A DNA stretch of 17,812 nucleotides from Candidatus Eiseniibacteriota bacterium (lineage in GTDB: Bacteria; Eisenbacteria; RBG-16-71-46). A program made the position numbers. Positions 6,001-14,884 of the stretch are shown in pieces. The stretch is taken from NCBI GenBank assembly GCA_041483195.1, contig JBGPFC010000056.1:1-17812 (forward strand), written 5' to 3'. Positions within the stretch are counted from its first letter, which is position 1, and each line of letters starts with the position of its first letter.

Positions 6001-9000
6001 CCCGCGCCGCCGATCCCGATTCCATACCCCAACATCGCGCAATCGAGCCAGATCTCGGATGGCAGCACCACGGTGAAGTGTGATGGCAATCCGGTCATGG
6101 TCCAGGACTCGAAGTTCAGCACCAGCAGCGGCGACGAGGCGGGCAGCGCGGGCGGAGGCGTGGTGACGCACACCCAGAAGGGCAAGGCCGAGTTCGTGAA
6201 CTTCTCGTTCGACGTGAAGTTCGACGGCAAGATGGTGGGCCGGCTGCTCGATCCGATGCTCGGGAACGAGATGTCGGCCAAGCCGCCCAACACGCCGCCC
6301 TCGCCCGAAATGCAGGCGCCAGCGGTCGCCGTGCCGATGCCGGAGCCGCCCTCCGGCGACTGGTCCATCGCGAGCTCGGGGTAGGACGCCTTCATGTCCA
6401 AGCAGTACGTGAATCTCAATCCCACCGCGGAGAACCCGCCGCGCGACGAGTACGGGCAGACGGTGAAGCTCAAGGCGTCGATCGCCGAGACCAAGCCCGG
6501 CGCCGCCGACACCGCGAAGGCGTTCTTCTTCATCGAGCCCGGCGGGAAGAACATGGACTTCAAGTACCTTCCCAAGAGCGGTCGGCCGGCGGCCTTCTAC
6601 CAGGATCCCAAGTACATCGTGCCGGCCGACGTGATCGACAAGAACGCGGTGGCCCAGGCGCAGATCTCGATCGCGGGCGGCGACACGTTCACGTTCAAGC
6701 GCGGGAAGGAGCGCGACAAGTCCGACTCCGCGAGCTACGGCAGCCTCGAGGCCGTCGTGTGGCGCAAGGTGATCGTGCGGCTCGGCCACATGAAGGGCTG
6801 CACGCCGATCGATCCCACGACGCTCACCAAGGATTTCGACCCGGTGTTCATCGAGGTCGAGAAGGACGGGGCCGATCACGAGCTCACCCACGCTTCGTTC
6901 GTCCAGGACGAGAACGCGGTTCTGGTCGAGCTCGCCGGCAAGTACGGCGCGCCCCCGACCCAGCCTTTCTGCACCGTTCCCACCGTATTCGTGGACCGCA
7001 TCGCATCGCCGGGGCAGCTCGACGTTCACGAGTTCTACATTCCCGAGGAGTTCGAGCGCACCAAGATTCAGTACGTCGAGTTCGATGGCCTGACGTGGCC
7101 GATGGGGAACGAGTGGCTCGTGAGCGGAGAGATCGAGGCGAGGGACAAGGACAACAAGGTGCGCGCGACCTGGAGCGATCTGCTGAAGCACGTGTCGCCC
7201 CGCACCTCGGGCGATGGTCTGCACTTCAAGCACCCGGAAGGGGGATACGCCTCGAGCCAGCTGAAACTCGACGCCGGCACGCTCGGCACCGCGTTCGACG
7301 ATTGGCTGAAGGCGGGCGAGGGGAAGCTCAAGATCACCGCGAAGATCAACATCCTCTCGGACGTCGCGAACGGCTTCTCCGCCAACGACAAGCCGCTGGT
7401 CGTGGTCGCGGTCCGCGATCCCTGGAGCGGGGCGGACCGCACCAAGATGGATCGGACCGTCGTCCACGAGTTCGGGCACGCGTTCGGGCTGGGCCACAAG
7501 GAGGTCCCCCTGTTCGACGCGGACAAGGGCGATCCCGCCGGCACCGAGAAGAACGGCTTGTGGTACGTGCAGAAGGGCGGCCAGGGCCCGCACTGCCATA
7601 CCGGCGCGACCGACAACGCCACCTCCGGCAATTGGGAGGACGGCTCCTGCGTCATGTTGGGATACGCTGCGACTACGCGGAAGACCTACTGCGAGAAGTG
7701 CATCTCGATCCTGAAACGAGCGCCGCTGAACAAGCTCGGACTGGTGACGATCAACAAGGAGGAATGGTGGAACATGACCAACACTTGAGCGCGAGGGGCC
7801 AGGCCCGCGTTCTCGCGGCGCTTCACGCGCCCCGCCGGCGAACCGGCTGGCGTGCGGCCGGCCGAATCGACCCGGGGAGCGCCGCGTGAACACCCCGGAT
7901 GCGGCGGGCGGCGACCTCGCGTTTCTCGGCATCACGCTGCCATCGCGCGCGCCCTGCGAGGCGACGCCCGCCATGGCGGAAGATGGCCGCGGCTTTCGAA
8001 TCGCGGCCCCGCGGCGCGTGAACGCCGGCGATGGCGTGAGGCTTCCCATCTGCGGCGTGTGGCAGTTCGGGCCGGAACGGCGCGAGCTGGCGTTCGAGCT
8101 GTGGGAGGCGTGCGTGCTGGTACTGGTCGACGTGACGCACAATCGCGCGCGTGCCGTGACCCTGCGCGATCCCTCGCGCACCCCGGTGGAGCCGCTCCCG
8201 AAGCCGCCCGACTCCGATCCGGGCGCGGGCGGCCGAGCGGCTCCGTCCGACGGGCCGGTGAAGCGGGCGTCGCTCACTGCGGGCTACTACAATTTCGATC
8301 TCACCCGGTTCATCCCGCTGCCCCCTGCGCCCGCCGTGTACTACGTGTTTCTCACCCAGGCTCAGTACCACTCCAACACCGTCCGGGTGGAAGCGGTCGC
8401 GCCACCTGAGGAGAAGTGACCGTGAGCGAGCAGTTTCCGAACTTCGCGCGGAACGACGCATCGCCAAAGCTGCAGCCGGAGATCGGAGGCATCGCGGTGT
8501 CGGCGGGCGACGGCCGGATCGCCGAGGTCGTGCTGCGCGGCGCGTTCCGCGTGCTGCCGGGCGACCGCGGCGAATTGAAGAACGCCGCGCTGCGGGCGCA
8601 GGCGTGGGTGGTCGCGGTCGAGCGCGGGTCGCGCTCGATCCATCTCGGACAACCGGGCGCGGCCGCGGTGGTGTTCGATGGCGAGGAGGCGAAGACCGGC
8701 GCGGTCGATGGTTGGTTCAACGTGGGCCTCGCCGAGTGCTGCAAGCTGCCGAAGTCCGGTGCCGGGCTCTACGACGTGACCGCGGTGATCGGTCCATACA
8801 AGTCGCCCCCGATCGCTGTGAAACTGCGCGCGTGATCGCGCGCGCCGGGCGGGCCGGCCCGCGACGCGTGCGCGCTCGGACCCGCGGCGCTAGCCGGCGC
8901 CGAGCGGCAGCATGAAGCCGAAGTCGATCGCCTTGGTCTCGAGGGTGATCGCCGGTTTGATGCGCACCTCGGCCATCGGCACCTTCTCGCCGTCGACCAG

Positions 9001-12000: not shown

Positions 12001-14884
12001 GCGCCCGCCTGCTTCATGAACTCGGCGAGATTCTCGCGATCGACGCGATGCGCGCGGCCGCGCAGGTCCTCGCCGGCGCTTCCGGGCGGAAGCAGATCGG
12101 CCACGACGATGAGATCCAGCGGCAGATCCGTGCGCTCCATGCGACCTCCGGGTTCGGCGCGACGCAGGGCGCCAGCCTGCGCCCGACGGGGCGCGCGGCA
12201 CCATGAGCCGCACACACTAGTCGCGCCGGCGCCGCGGGGCAACCGCCCCGATTCGGGCGCGAGCGGAGCCTCTCGGCGGCTCCCGGCCGGGCGCCGCGGC
12301 GCACGCGGGACGTGGCGGGGCGGTTGACATGGGCGGCGGGCGCTCCATAGATTTCGGCGAAGCTGGCCAGCCGCGCCCCGTTCCGAGGAGACCTCGCCAT
12401 GCCCCCCACCGTGGTCGCACTCCATCTCACCCCCGCCCGCCGCGAGGCGCTGGTGCCGGTCGAGCACGTCACCGCGTTGCTCGAGACCGGTCTCGACGGG
12501 GACCGCCACGCCCGGCGCGACAGCCGGCGACAGGTGCTGCTCGTCGAGCAGGAAGTGCTCGACGGCTTCGGGCTCGCGCCGGGCGCCATTCGCGAACAGG
12601 TCACGGTGCGCGGCCTCGACCTGAACGCACTCCCCTTCGGCGCGCGCATCCGGGTGGGCGGCGCGACGCTCGAGATGGCGGGGCCGTGCGCGCCGTGCGC
12701 GCGCATGGACGAGATCCGGCCGGGACTGCAGGGCGAGCTCGAGGGCCGGCGCGGGCGCTTCGCCCGAGTGACCGGCGCCGGTACCTTTGCGGTCGGCGAC
12801 GTGCTCAGGGTCGAGCCGCCGGCCTGACGCCTTCGAACACCCGGCCCGGTCGGCGCGGCGCAAGGGAGGATCGACTGCAGCGCACCATCTCCGGCACCGT
12901 GCTGCTCGCCGCGGTCGCGATCCTCGCGACCTGCGCGCTCTCGTGGTACTCGTATCGAGGGGTGCGCACCGCGCTCGATGACGAGTTCGCGCGCCGCCTC
13001 GCCAACGTGTCGAGCGCGACCGCCGCGCAGATCAGCGCAGACGATATCGGGGACGCGGAGCGTCTCGGCGACGAGGGCGCGGGCTTCGCGAATCTCCAGG
13101 TGCAGCTCGAAGCGCTGCGCACCACGACCGGGCTCGCGAACGCCTCGTTGTTCGATTCGCTCGGTCTCACCATCTACGACTGCCGCGGCCCGGAGTACCA
13201 GCACGAGACCACGCGCCTCGACACGCTCGCGCACGCGGCGGTCGAGACCGCGCTGCGCGGACGCGCGGTGGTCACTCCCACGTTCGTCCTCGCGGGCCGG
13301 GAGGCCCGGGCTGGTCTCGCGCCGGTGATGGGGCGGAGCGGCAGCGTCGCGGGCGTGGTCGCGGTCGAGGGCCGGCTCGAATACCTGCCGGTGCTCGCCC
13401 GGTTCCGGCGCGGGCTCCTGCTCTCGGCGCTGGTGATCGCGCTCACGCTGGTGGTGCTGGTGGTGCTCCGCATTCGCATGGCGCTCGCCGCCGAGCGGCT
13501 CGAGCGGCGGCTGAGCCGCGCCGAGAATCTCGCGGCGATGGGCCGCCTCACCGCCACGCTCGCGCACGAGATCAAGAACCCGCTCGCGATCATCCGCGGC
13601 TCCGCGCAGCGACTCGGCAAGCTCGAGCCCGAGGCGGAGCGCATGGCGGCGTTCATCGTGGAGGAGAGCGACCGGCTCAGTCACACGGTCGCGCGCTACC
13701 TGCAGTTCGCGCGCGCCGAGGCGGGGACCGGAGAGCATGGCGACGCGGCGGGGGCGCTCGCCGCCACCCTCGACCTGCTCGATGGCGAATGCCGCGAGCG
13801 GCGGGTCGATGTGGCGCGCGGCGAGGCCGGAGCGCCCGCCATCGTCTCGCTCGATCACGAGTCGCTCAAGCAGGTCTACCTCAACCTGATCCTGAACGCG
13901 CTCGAGGCGATGCCCGAGGGGGGCAGGCTCACGGTCACACGCGTGGAGCACGGGGCGCGCATCGAGTTCACGATCGCCGACACCGGATCGGGCATCGCCC
14001 CCGAGGCGGTCGGCCGGGCCGGGGACCCGTTCTTCACCACCAAGGCGAAGGGCTCGGGCCTGGGTCTCTTTCTCGCGCGAAGGCTGGTACAGTCCGCGGG
14101 CGGCGACCTGGAGATGCGAAGCGAAGCCGGCCGCGGTACGACGGCCATCGTGCGGTTCCCACGCGTGAAAGGATGAGCGTGCGCGTCCTCGTGGTGGATG
14201 ACGAGATCCGCAACGCGGAGCTCACCGCGCTTGAGCTGCGCGACGGCGGCCACGATGTCGAGTTCGTGAACGGCGGCGACGCCGCGCTCAAGGCGATGGA
14301 AACCGCGCCGTTCGACGCGATCGTGACCGATCTGCGCATGAAGCCGCCCGACGGCCTCGCGCTGCTCGAGCGGGTGCGGCAGCGCTGGCCGGCCACCGCC
14401 GTGGTGCTGATGACCGCCTACGCGAGCATGGAGACCGCGCGCCGCGCCCTGCGCAGCGGGGCGTACGATTATGTCGACAAGGAGGGCGACTTCCGCGAGG
14501 AGCTGAAGAGCATCCTCGCCCGGGCCGCGCGCGAGCGGGCGCTCACCGCGGCCAACCGGCAGCTCGAGAGCACCGTGGACTCGCTCACCCGCGGACTCGC
14601 CACCATCGTCGGGGATTCCGTGGCGACGCGCCGCGCGGTGGACCTGGCGAAGAAGGTCGCGGCCACCGATTCCACCGTGCTGCTGCGCGGCGAGAGCGGC
14701 AGCGGCAAGGACCTGTTCGCCCGCGCCATTCACTTTTCCAGCCGGCGCGCGGCGGGGCCATGGGTGAAGGTGAACTGCGTCGCGCTCCCCGAGCACCTGC
14801 TCGAGAGCGAGCTGTTCGGCCACGAGAAGGGCTCGTTCACCGGCGCGACGCGACAGAAGCCCGGCCGCTTCGAGGACGCGAACC

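Follow-up and report, generated by a model that had tools for sequence, protein, structure and literature searches.

In the contractile sheaths treated in PMC5807055, the N-terminal strand of TssB links subunits within a sheath disc and the C-terminal strand of TssC links subunits along the protofilament; the N-terminal arm of the pyocin sheath comprises residues 2–25. The LLDEII motif of VipB is of the ClpV-binding type (PMC4239648). Several sheath proteins are described for PVC and AFP, and in AlgoCIS the sheath layers at the ends have differing termini (PMC8894135). TagA (with long TssA) and TagB/TagJ (with short TssA) are optional, lineage-specific and encoded in type VI secretion system (T6SS) clusters, and are thought to act on the sheath (PMC7896307). 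A full-text literature search turned up no description of natural TssB–TssC fusions.

The window analysed here is the whole stretch of 17,812 nucleotides of contig JBGPFC010000056.1 of a Candidatus Eiseniibacteriota bacterium. Its start is identical to the end of contig C22 over exactly 141 bp, as had been noticed in a survey of the genome, and this 141-mer occurs in no other contig. C22 carries a complete T6SS set (TssJ, K, L, M, A, B, C, Hcp, E, F, G, ClpV and VgrG). The genome holds three VipB-type matches, one Hcp and one TssF, and a search for a phage-type sheath in it gave no match.

Two single-chain sheath paralogues

The survey's finding was a second sheath module encoded by two minus-strand open reading frames, and codon-position GC fits these frames and this strand. 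The features of the long gene (product P0001) and the short gene (product P0002) are as follows.

12145–12149 (−): GGAGG ribosome-binding site of the long gene, 4 nt upstream of the ATG at 12140–12138 (read from the sequence)
10299–12140 (−): long single-chain sheath paralogue P0001, 613 aa, stop codon 10299–10301 (ORF, translation, codon-position GC, Pfam)
11769–12137 (−): TssB/VipA-like part of P0001, residues 2–124 (Pfam VipA)
11478–11768 (−): Ala/Pro/Gly-rich linker of P0001, residues 125–221 (composition, AF2 confidence)
11622–11651 (−): motif IDALFDMVDV, P0001 residues 164–173 (family alignment, BLASTP to the canonical TssC, P0139)
10302–11477 (−): TssC/VipB-like part of P0001, residues 222–613 (Pfam VipB, profile, structure alignment)
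8890–10239 (−): short single-chain sheath paralogue P0002, 449 aa, stop codon 8890–8892 (ORF, translation, codon-position GC, hhalign)
10039–10233 (−): TssB-like N-terminal half of P0002, residues 3–67 (aligned to P0001 residues 5–82)
8893–10029 (−): TssC-like part of P0002, residues 71–449 (Pfam VipB, profile against solved TssC)

P0001 runs from a TssB-like part through a flexible linker to a TssC-like part. It is, as the survey had claimed, a natural TssB–TssC fusion, with matches to Pfam VipA (residues 2–124; E 2.1e-7, 31.3 bits against a cut-off of 24; profile positions 22–151 of 155) and VipB (residues 222–507; E 2.3e-49) in one open frame. That the fusion is genuine is confirmed by several observations. 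The ATG follows a ribosome-binding site, and its position is shared by 19 family members aligned with P0001; in-frame translation upstream of it yields Arg/Pro-rich junk. The junction at 11478–11768 is wholly or largely covered by contigs of three other runs with no gap or difference, and full-length single-ORF relatives occur in several phyla, in one case in a genome of 37% GC. The family profile of P0001 aligns with solved TssB chains beginning at TssB residue 23–31, and the genome's own TssB (22% identity) aligns from its residue 29. P0001 thus begins at the point that corresponds to TssB residue ~23, and the N-terminal donor strand is missing.

The linker is variable in length among long-form family members, and its residues 133–206 are mostly of low confidence in the AF2 model (pLDDT 37–55 in ten-residue blocks across 131–210, some segments below 50). 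It contains the motif IDALFDMVDV, whose consensus in the long family is LDxLFxMVDV, with V171 invariant and F168 and D172 conserved at 90% or more (alignment A1). BLASTP aligns this motif with ESILDQIV at the N-terminus of the canonical TssC, where the LLDEII-type helix lies, and the motif may bind ClpV. For the TssC-like part, the P0001 profile covers residues 8–487 of the 494 of TssC 5urw, and the VIA alignment places P0001 212–602 onto TssC residues 63–477.

The survey described the 449-aa protein as lacking the TssB part, which proved incorrect. In a profile-profile comparison with the long family (hhalign; probability 100%, E 5e-77), residues 3–67 of P0002 fall on P0001 5–82 and residues 71–449 on 225–613, and an Acidobacteriota orthologue of P0002 (locus L022; 34% identity, full length) has a Pfam VipA match at its residues 18–94. 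Judged from these alignments, P0002 is the same TssB–TssC fusion as P0001 minus ~140 residues. What is missing are the C-terminal helices of TssB, the linker and the N-terminal helices of TssC. Together these make up sheath domain 3 and the ClpV handle, and the ClpV-type motif is lost with them. In the TssB-like half, Pfam detects VipA in just 2 of 57 members of the short family, and there are weak matches to seven solved TssB/VipA-type sequences in a consistent register (residues ~29–113; E 0.017–0.23, the best five of the seven at 0.017–0.052). VipB is matched by P0002 residues 76–333 (E 7.2e-42), and the short-family profile extends over solved TssC, e.g., residues 65–481 of 9n4v_A (493 aa) and 31–449 of 5n8n_B. 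Against the canonical TssC encoded in this genome, P0001 is 28% identical (469 columns) and P0002 30% identical (266 columns), which reproduces the low values stated by the survey.

Both proteins are confidently predicted to have the sheath fold (AF2 pLDDT 87.7 and pTM 0.85 for P0001; 95.4 and 0.94 for P0002). The top structural matches of the P0001 model are TssC chains (Z 31–33), which residues 66–436 of the P0002 model match at the same Z, while residues 1–436 match the single-chain sheaths of pyocin, PVC and AFP at Z 21–23. In the model secondary structure both keep a donor-strand-accepting hairpin (strands 576–583 and 587–594 in P0001; 406–415 and 418–427 in P0002) and a C-terminal strand of their own (605–610 and 440–445, respectively). 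Canonical TssC motifs are also kept, namely HHPxFxxLExxW, PYG (RAPYG in P0001, RLPYG in the canonical TssC), FEE and DLPV. The models align to the pyocin R2 sheath only from its residue 21–24; as both proteins begin at a point equivalent to about residue 23 of TssB or about residue 21 of the pyocin sheath, they have no N-terminal donor strand. Most long forms outside the Eisenbacteria clade keep 15–35 residues ahead of the TssB-like core, so being armless is a trait of particular lineages and does not account for the family as a whole.

Distribution and evolution of the fused genes

The recurrence in other Eisenbacteria is wider than the survey had claimed. Counting the genome studied here, the long orthologue is present in 16 and the short one in 34 of 206 Eisenbacteria genomes, and the fused family extends to Acidobacteriota, Nitrospirota, Rhodothermota, Myxococcota and Proteobacteria, including strain BAL199. 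In the phylogenetic tree, 47 fused rows split from 32 canonical TssC rows (SH-aLRT 100), the short forms make up one group (support 100) nested among the long forms, and the fused-form branches are longer than the canonical ones. All carriers tested proved to have a canonical TssC gene as well: the five from other phyla, each with one canonical-grade match plus fused ones, and the 34 Eisenbacteria with a short orthologue, where it is incomplete in three (two contig-end fragments and out-of-frame pieces in G057). The fused genes may occur singly, as G087 (99% complete) has the canonical and short forms only, G214 and BAL199 have the canonical and one long form only, and G141 has a long orthologue and no short match.

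The survey had allowed for a decaying pair, and functionless tssBC duplicates might show the modest TssB-like score, the NCBIfam scores under the equivalog cut-offs, the long branches and the condition of G055, in which both fused genes are in two pieces each. However, comparison of same-genus orthologues gave dN/dS of 0.30 for both the long and the short gene (606 and 447 codons, respectively; 0.12 for canonical tssC in the same genome pair), and both fused genes are by this measure under purifying selection. Orthologues have intact open frames in many phyla, including the 37% GC genome, both parts are kept in one chain in 129 of the best 150 cluster representatives, and the folds are confidently predicted. 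Decay is largely refuted by these data, and we give it hardly any credence.

Canonical tssC usually shares a cluster with the fused genes. The long and short genes are adjacent in the window and in L006, L011, L014, L017 and L022. In the first three of these six loci, the pair and the VgrG/effector island are transcribed towards each other. The order in the Acidobacteriota loci L022 and L017 is TssJ-K-L-M-short-long; the next gene in L022 is VgrG, and in L017 a convergent VgrG/effector island comes next. In BAL199 the order is fused-Fha-TssJ-K-L-M, divergent from TssA-B-C-E-F-G-ClpV. In L014 the two genes are surrounded by metabolic genes, and the canonical TssC match of that genome is on another contig. 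In two Eisenbacteria loci, L007 and L009, the long and short genes belong to one same-strand run with genes for CsgG-like lipoproteins, a TPR/peptidoglycan-binding protein, an outer-membrane barrel, an Ig-repeat protein of 1147–1261 aa and DUF922, and L012 has a peptidoglycan-binding protein and an FHA-SLT protein upstream. Such arrangements might suggest a component of another envelope-associated apparatus that merely shares the neighbourhood of the T6SS. This seems improbable, as the window, L006, L011, L014, L017, L022 and L037 have none of these neighbours, and canonical T6SS genes are the sole constant companions. Among the genomes examined, none was seen that has the fused and the envelope genes but no T6SS.

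Possible roles of the fused proteins

Of the second sheath module proposed by the survey, a conserved and selected sheath-fold pair at a T6SS locus stands, but a working, self-sufficient sheath is a less likely reading than an accessory module. In the former case the long and short proteins would co-polymerise round the same Hcp tube and on the same baseplate, giving a sheath with other properties. The full two-domain core with its acceptor hairpin and C-terminal strand, the retention of the best-conserved TssC motifs, the adjacency of the pair in six loci and the N-terminal extension of TssB-like length in most non-Eisenbacteria long forms speak for it. On the other hand, P0001 and P0002 lack the donor strand that links the disc (PMC5807055), the short form lacks domain 3, and the genome encodes a single Hcp, a single TssF and no sheath of another type. 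Moreover, canonical TssC accompanies the fused genes in all 39 carriers tested (five of other phyla, 33 Eisenbacteria and G057; three incomplete), short-only and long-only genomes exist, and non-synonymous evolution is 2.5 times faster than in canonical tssC. We consider such a sheath quite unlikely.

That the ring-linking strand has been lost, and domain 3 too in the short form, is also compatible with soluble regulators, i.e., sheath-subunit mimics that would bind free TssB/TssC, TssE, TssA or ClpV outside the polymer and so provide a checkpoint for assembly, a decoy for ClpV or a chaperone of unpolymerised subunits. The ClpV-type motif retained in the disordered linker of the long form, an evolution faster than that of polymer-forming subunits and the occurrence of each gene singly point the same way. 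Nevertheless, the core is conserved as a whole, with its acceptor hairpin and C-terminal strand, which would be needless for a mere decoy, and we hold this role to be unlikely, though worth consideration.

All carriers tested have canonical TssC, and in this genome Hcp and TssF are single and a phage-type sheath gave no match. The long and short genes therefore seem best read as an accessory sheath-paralogue module, probably of low copy, of the genome's single T6SS; we favour it tentatively, at somewhat less than an even chance. The fused proteins would form no sheath by themselves, but would dock on or enter the canonical TssBC sheath in small numbers via the handshake elements, possibly in the baseplate-proximal layer, in the distal layer or as interspersed subunits. 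There they could tune sheath assembly, stability, firing or ClpV recycling, with ClpV seeing the long form and not the short form. The multiple sheath proteins of PVC and AFP and the terminal layers of AlgoCIS offer precedents. The occurrence of fused genes beside ordinary sheath genes in many phyla points to an undescribed accessory part of the T6SS.

Some observations sit uneasily with the accessory module. The missing N-terminal strand might also hinder entry into the canonical ring, and the longer fused-form branches also fit a non-structural role. The two forms are not an obligate pair (G087, G214, BAL199, G141), the L014 pair and the canonical TssC match of its genome are on different contigs, and the armless state does not hold for the whole family.

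Comparison with known systems

The canonical TssB/TssC proteins (VipA/VipB, HsiB/HsiC; 3J9G, 5N8N, 5URW) belong to the same Pfam families, VipA and VipB, and share with the fused paralogues the TssC fold (Z 31–33, rmsd ~3 Å over 357–388 residues; 312–321 for 9n4v_A), conserved motifs and encoding in T6SS clusters. The long form keeps the domain-3 helices and an LLDEII-like motif of the canonical sheath, whereas domain 3 is absent from the short form. Unlike the two canonical polypeptides, the fused paralogues are one chain, and those of this lineage lack the N-terminal donor strand of canonical TssB. They score below the canonical NCBIfam equivalog cut-offs (185 and 142 bits versus 271.5; 31 versus 97.25), and Pfam VipB_2 gave no match in either protein. 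They form a clade separate from canonical TssC and are an addition to the canonical pair, not its replacement.

The sheaths of R-type pyocins, contractile phages and eCIS, such as pyocin R2 (3J9Q), PVC (6J0B) and AFP (6RBN), likewise carry the TssB and TssC equivalents in a single chain. Both models align with these sheaths end to end, for example with residues 21–24 to 365–367 of pyocin R2 (Z 21–23); the pyocin sheath is described as having domains 1 and 2 only (PMC5807055), like the short form, and PVC and AFP as having several sheath paralogues per particle (PMC8894135). In sequence, however, P0001 and P0002 are of the T6SS and not the phage type, with 9–13% identity to the pyocin, PVC and AFP sheaths and, at E up to 1, nothing but VipA and VipB among Pfam matches. 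They also lack the N-terminal arm of these sheaths and, in contrast to pyocin, phage and eCIS sheaths, have no dedicated tube or baseplate.

TagA and TagB/TagJ are optional, cluster-encoded additions as well, and a parallel in function may be hypothesised. Judged by family names rather than dedicated models, no Pfam name suggesting TagA, TagB or TagJ was present among the scanned cluster genes. These proteins show no relation in sequence or fold to the fused paralogues, which are sheath subunits themselves.

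Organization of the Locus

Contig C56, on which the window lies, is the continuation of contig C22, and the join inside vgrG is unambiguous because C22 ends in the very 141 bp with which C56 begins, a 141-mer that no third contig has; the overlap given in the survey's finding thus stands. An exact overlap of 141 bp has the appearance of an assembly-graph break at k = 141 (k being inferred). Toward its end C22 encodes Ser/Thr kinases and, after them, TssJ, K, L, M, A, B, C, Hcp, TssE, F, G and ClpV, then the beginning of VgrG. The genes of C56 are as follows.

Genes of the window
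1-1911, +, vgrG, 3' part
1958-3253, +, weakly HEAT-like gene
end at 3753, +, DUF6484 gene
3813-4820, +, DUF2169 gene
between the DUF2169 and PAAR-like genes, +, protein of about 355 aa with a weak ketosynthase-like match
end at 6384, +, PAAR-like gene (Tox-PAAR-like)
6394-7788, +, 464-aa protein, after the PAAR-like gene
7886-8419 and 8416-8835, +, two small genes after the 464-aa gene
8890-10239, -, short gene (P0002, 449 aa), from the ORF listing and codon-position GC plot
10299-12140, -, long fused gene (P0001, 613 aa), from the same two sources
past the pair, MOSC gene, divergent from the two sheath paralogues
12828-15654, +, histidine kinase and sigma-54-dependent response regulator, past MOSC
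past the response regulator, YbbR, then rho

A scan of 8600-12500 for promoters and terminators found neither a minus-strand sigma-70-like site nor a terminator. There is no sigma-54 consensus near the pair, and the window holds a single match, at 16493, against 4.75 expected by chance.

The island at 1-8835 resembles the DUF2169/PAAR 'Tvp' spike-loading sets, as these appear in the accessible part of bioRxiv 10.64898/2026.02.23.707444. The same gene order is found at two related loci (L011 and L013), its 3' part only at L006, and L017 has the same gene set with no DUF6484 match. The 464-aa protein is likely a putative T6SS effector, since it carries HEFGHAFGLGH, which we take to be a metzincin-type zinc-binding motif, and has weak Pfam matches to Peptidase_M10 and Reprolysin_3; the two small genes behind it could be candidate immunity genes. 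The GC content of vgrG and this putative effector (1-2000 and 6000-8000) is 0.63-0.68 versus 0.71-0.76 elsewhere in the window. Third-position GC remains steady at about 0.9-0.95 across these stretches, hence the difference resides in amino-acid composition.

TssB-TssC Fusions of Two Lengths

The long form P0001 combines a Pfam VipA match (PF05591, residues 2-124, 31.3 bits, gathering cut-off 24) with a VipB match (PF05943, residues 222-507, 168.5 bits, cut-off 27). It falls below the NCBIfam equivalog cut-offs for both TssB (TIGR03358, 31.1 versus 97.25 bits) and TssC (TIGR03355, 185.2 versus 271.5 bits), and its alignment with the genome's canonical TssB starts from TssB residue 29. The low identity to canonical TssC that had been reported was found again: P0001 is 28% and the short form P0002 30% identical to P0139, the canonical TssC encoded on C22, and the two are 28% identical to each other. 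Support for the start of P0001 at 12140 comes from a Shine-Dalgarno sequence, GGAGG at 12145-12149, and from the upstream frame, which reads as junk. The survey's view that the fusion is not an assembly or frameshift artefact is borne out, as each gene is one open frame and contigs from other sediment runs, which may share one sampling campaign, show neither a gap nor a difference across the fusion region (X5 record 12, 10008-11876; X7 record 32, 11094-12300; X4 record 7, 11502-12164). Neither protein is thus made as TssB and TssC are, namely as separate polypeptides from two adjacent genes.

The 449-aa partner had been described as lacking the TssB part, and this description fails. When their profiles are compared, the short family (57 sequences) and the long family (56 sequences) align end to end with a probability of 100% and E 5e-77, residues 3-67 of P0002 falling on 5-82 of P0001 and 71-449 on 225-613. 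The single gap of P0002 corresponds to P0001 ~86-224, i.e., the helices at the C-terminus of the TssB part and at the N-terminus of the TssC part, together with the linker between them. In the accessible text of PMC5807055 these helices constitute domain 3, the outer T6SS-specific layer and ClpV target, and the R2 pyocin sheath, which has no domain 3, is not recycled. The domain 3 region is wholly absent from P0002. Its Acidobacteriota orthologue at L022 (34% identity over the full length) has a Pfam VipA match at residues 18-94. P0002 itself matches Pfam VipB (residues 76-333, 143.9 bits, cut-off 27), has no match to Pfam VipA or TIGR03358 and lies below the TIGR03355 cut-off (141.8 versus 271.5 bits). 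Pfam VipA is detected in just 2 of the 57 short-family members, so the TssB-like nature of the P0002 N-terminus rests on the profile-profile and orthologue evidence; the short-family profile also gives weak matches to solved TssB chains (E 0.017-0.05) in a constant register. The short form at L014 (532 aa) retains more of the TssB part, with Pfam VipA reaching profile position 135.

The long form keeps helices of the domain-3 region (103-128 and 185-235 in the AlphaFold2 model). The linker motif IDALFDMVDV (164-173) is conserved in its family, V171 being invariant and F168 and D172 present in at least 90% of members, and it aligns with ESILDQIV of canonical TssC. VipB binds ClpV via the LLDEII helix, according to the available text of PMC4239648. 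We infer from the alignment that IDALFDMVDV occupies the position of this helix and may bind ClpV there.

Predicted Structures and the Missing N-Terminal Arm

AlphaFold2 models built on the family alignments reached pLDDT 87.7 and pTM 0.85 for P0001 (low confidence over most of residues 133-206) and pLDDT 95.4 and pTM 0.94 for P0002. The top Foldseek matches for both were T6SS TssC chains (E about 1e-21), and VIA-align scored TssC chains at Z 31-33 (P0001 ~212-602, P0002 ~66-436); in both searches the two models have the two-domain core of contractile sheaths. Against the single-chain sheaths of phage, pyocin, PVC and AFP, Z was 20-25 over nearly the whole models; residues 21-365 of the R2 pyocin sheath (3j9q_A) match P0001 4-603, and 24-367 match P0002 5-436. 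Because these alignments span nearly the whole models, each protein is predicted to be topologically a complete single-chain sheath subunit, starting just past the end of the pyocin N-terminal arm. Phage_sheath_1 (PF04984) was not matched by either protein at E up to 1, nor at any place in the 96.8%-complete genome.

The pyocin arm comprises residues 2-25, and in the T6SS sheath the N-terminal strand of TssB provides the within-disc link and the C-terminal strand of TssC the protofilament link (both from the accessible text of PMC5807055). The N-terminal donor strand is absent here: P0001 and its family begin at TssB ~23, and both models begin at pyocin sheath residues 21-24. As modelled, the proteins of this Eisenbacteria lineage cannot make the within-disc link. 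At the C-terminus both models show two helices, a hairpin and a last strand (P0001 hairpin 576-583 and 587-594, strand 605-610; P0002 hairpin 406-415 and 418-427, strand 440-445), and the family profiles reach residues 487/494 (long) and 481/493 (short) of solved TssC. The C-terminal gpW/gp25-like domain PF18945 was not detected in either protein at E up to 1 and was found in 1 of the 57 short-family members (E 0.005). That sheath-like proteins of this kind act as soluble regulators is a reading we rate as unlikely. A complex prediction for the short form with the long form, the latter in two pieces with the linker omitted, scored 0.00 and, being made without controls, counts neither for nor against binding.

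Distribution and Phylogeny

The recurrence of the fusion in other Eisenbacteria was confirmed: a short orthologue (at least 230 bits) was found in 34 of 206 genomes, a long one (at least 327 bits) in 16 and both in 14, while some TssC-like match occurred in 53. A word-indexed search found 19 more full-length P0001 relatives, 562-626 aa long and at E 2e-90 or better, and for P0002 100 relatives at E 2e-75 or better, mostly of 420-482 aa. An exhaustive HMMER search gave 3777 matches at E up to 1e-3, 231 of them at E up to 1e-30, and 129 of the 150 best representatives carried TssB-like and TssC-like parts in one chain (median 618 aa). Clustered at 50% identity, the long form fills at least 129 clusters, and the short form about 100 at 90% identity; in databases these proteins are simply named ImpC or sheath large subunit. 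Among the 80 loci kept, 55 were tested, and one open frame held the whole match in 15 of them, including L015, which matches query 1-319 only, and L060, whose high-GC frame is unchecked; the remaining 40 loci were ordinary split tssB and tssC genes. Single-ORF fusions occur in species genomes of Nitrospirota, a 37%-GC uncultured bacterium, Acidobacteriota, Rhodothermota and Acidiferrobacterales, and fused genes adjoin canonical tssBC both in MAGs of Polyangiaceae and in alpha proteobacterium BAL199 (L037).

In a quick IQ-TREE search (80 rows, all kept, 462 columns, SH-aLRT only), 47 fused rows were separated from 32 canonical TssC by a branch of length 0.68 with SH-aLRT 100. The short forms come out as a single group with support 100, placed within the long forms with support 87, so the short form looks like a duplicate of the fused gene that lost domain 3. 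The canonical TssC of carrier genomes cluster tightly, with up to 74% identity across phyla, which indicates that the fused genes move along with a single lineage of T6SS clusters. Unrooted and with no T6SSii, T6SSiii or phage outgroup, the tree does not order the fused and split states in age, and therefore both fused-first and split-first are possible. The linker, variable and rich in Pro and Ala, would be consistent with read-through of what was once a tssB-tssC spacer. A third type of fused TssB-TssC (L098; G014:C14:33500-36200), with an N-terminus like the canonical TssB core, lies ~11 kb from the canonical tssC of its genome and groups with canonical TssC on a branch of 3.27; it may be an independent fusion event or a misplaced row.

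Compared with the same-genus orthologues at L006, dN/dS was 0.30 for both the long (606 codons) and the short gene (447 codons), versus 0.12 for canonical tssC (493 codons). That the two genes are merely decaying duplicates appears highly improbable in the light of these values.

Association with the Canonical T6SS

The window's genome encodes three VipB-type proteins but a single Hcp and a single TssF, and it lacks a phage-type sheath. An independent second sheath built from the fused proteins would have to share this single Hcp and TssF, and we consider it quite improbable. A canonical-type match was present in all 34 Eisenbacteria with a short orthologue (in G057 as out-of-frame pieces), and each of five tested carriers from other phyla had one canonical-grade TssC (381-451 bits, Pfam VipB) besides the fused genes, on the same contig and 17-23 kb off in three of them. 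The pair itself is not obligate: G087 has canonical genes and the short form only, and G214 and BAL199 have canonical genes and one long form only. In G055 (C29:632434-636036) the long and short forms were each matched as two pieces, which could be frameshifts, pseudogenes or assembly errors.

Gene orders differ among carriers. In Acidobacteriota TssJ-K-L-M-short-long is followed directly by VgrG (L022) or by a convergent VgrG/effector island (L017), and in BAL199 / Thalassobaculum the fused gene (L037 5219-7027) leads a same-strand run of six, fused-Fha-TssJ-K-L-M, which is divergent from TssA-B-C-E-F-G-ClpV. The pair is convergent with a VgrG/DUF2169/PAAR-like island in the window and at L006 and L011. 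At L007 and L009 the order is long-DUF922-short behind envelope genes, and at L014 (8334-11812), in the 37%-GC uncultured bacterium, an orphan pair (short 532 aa, long 628 aa) has aldolase, alanine racemase, aconitase and aldo-keto reductase genes as neighbours and the canonical TssC match lies on another contig. The settings at L007 and L009 could suggest that the proteins are part of another apparatus, which seems very unlikely. At L007 (1662-13699) and L009 (2361-13678), same-strand genes for CsgG-like lipoproteins, a TPR/peptidoglycan-binding protein, a possible barrel of the outer membrane and an Ig-repeat protein of HYDIN/ASH type (1147-1261 aa) precede the long, DUF922 and short genes.

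Possible Roles and Comparison with Known Sheaths

The reading we favour, if tentatively, is an accessory role of both proteins on the canonical sheath, because they are sheath subunits under selection, a tube and baseplate of their own are absent, a canonical sheath gene accompanies them in every tested carrier and the within-disc link is lacking here. A wider and more speculative proposal, of doubtful standing, is that T6SS sheaths are heterotypic in this broad cluster lineage, the single-chain paralogues forming a ring or rings at one end of the canonical sheath and the fused clade perhaps descending from a pre-split ancestor. The long form would then be visible to ClpV and the short form ClpV-blind and pyocin-like, and together they would set the start, holding or disassembly of the sheath. 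With an unsplit ancestor, the TssB/TssC split would fall within the domain-3 insertion.

Conserved natural single-chain sheath paralogues inside T6SS clusters, beside the ordinary pair, would represent a new class of component. They also offer a natural experiment on the reason for the split sheath gene, the contribution of domain 3 and of the arm at the N-terminus, and the building of sheath ends. One carrier record is a named strain, BAL199, which makes bench tests feasible if the strain is obtainable. Full-text literature searches found no description of natural TssB-TssC fusions or TssC-like paralogues, although subscription-only papers may hold one.

Existing accounts treat the T6SS sheath as a homopolymer whose repeating unit is the TssB-TssC heterodimer. 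To our knowledge, the accessories acting on it (TagA, TagB, TagJ, ClpV, TssA) have no sequence or fold relation to the sheath. A specialised ring or rings at one sheath end may likewise be built in PVC and AFP by their additional sheath proteins. The available text of PMC7896307 indicates that T6SS lineages differ in their sheath-stabilising accessories TagA, TagB and TagJ. A precedent for the accessory reading comes from PVC and AFP, where several sheath proteins are in use, and from AlgoCIS, with its distinct terminal layers (accessible text of PMC8894135).
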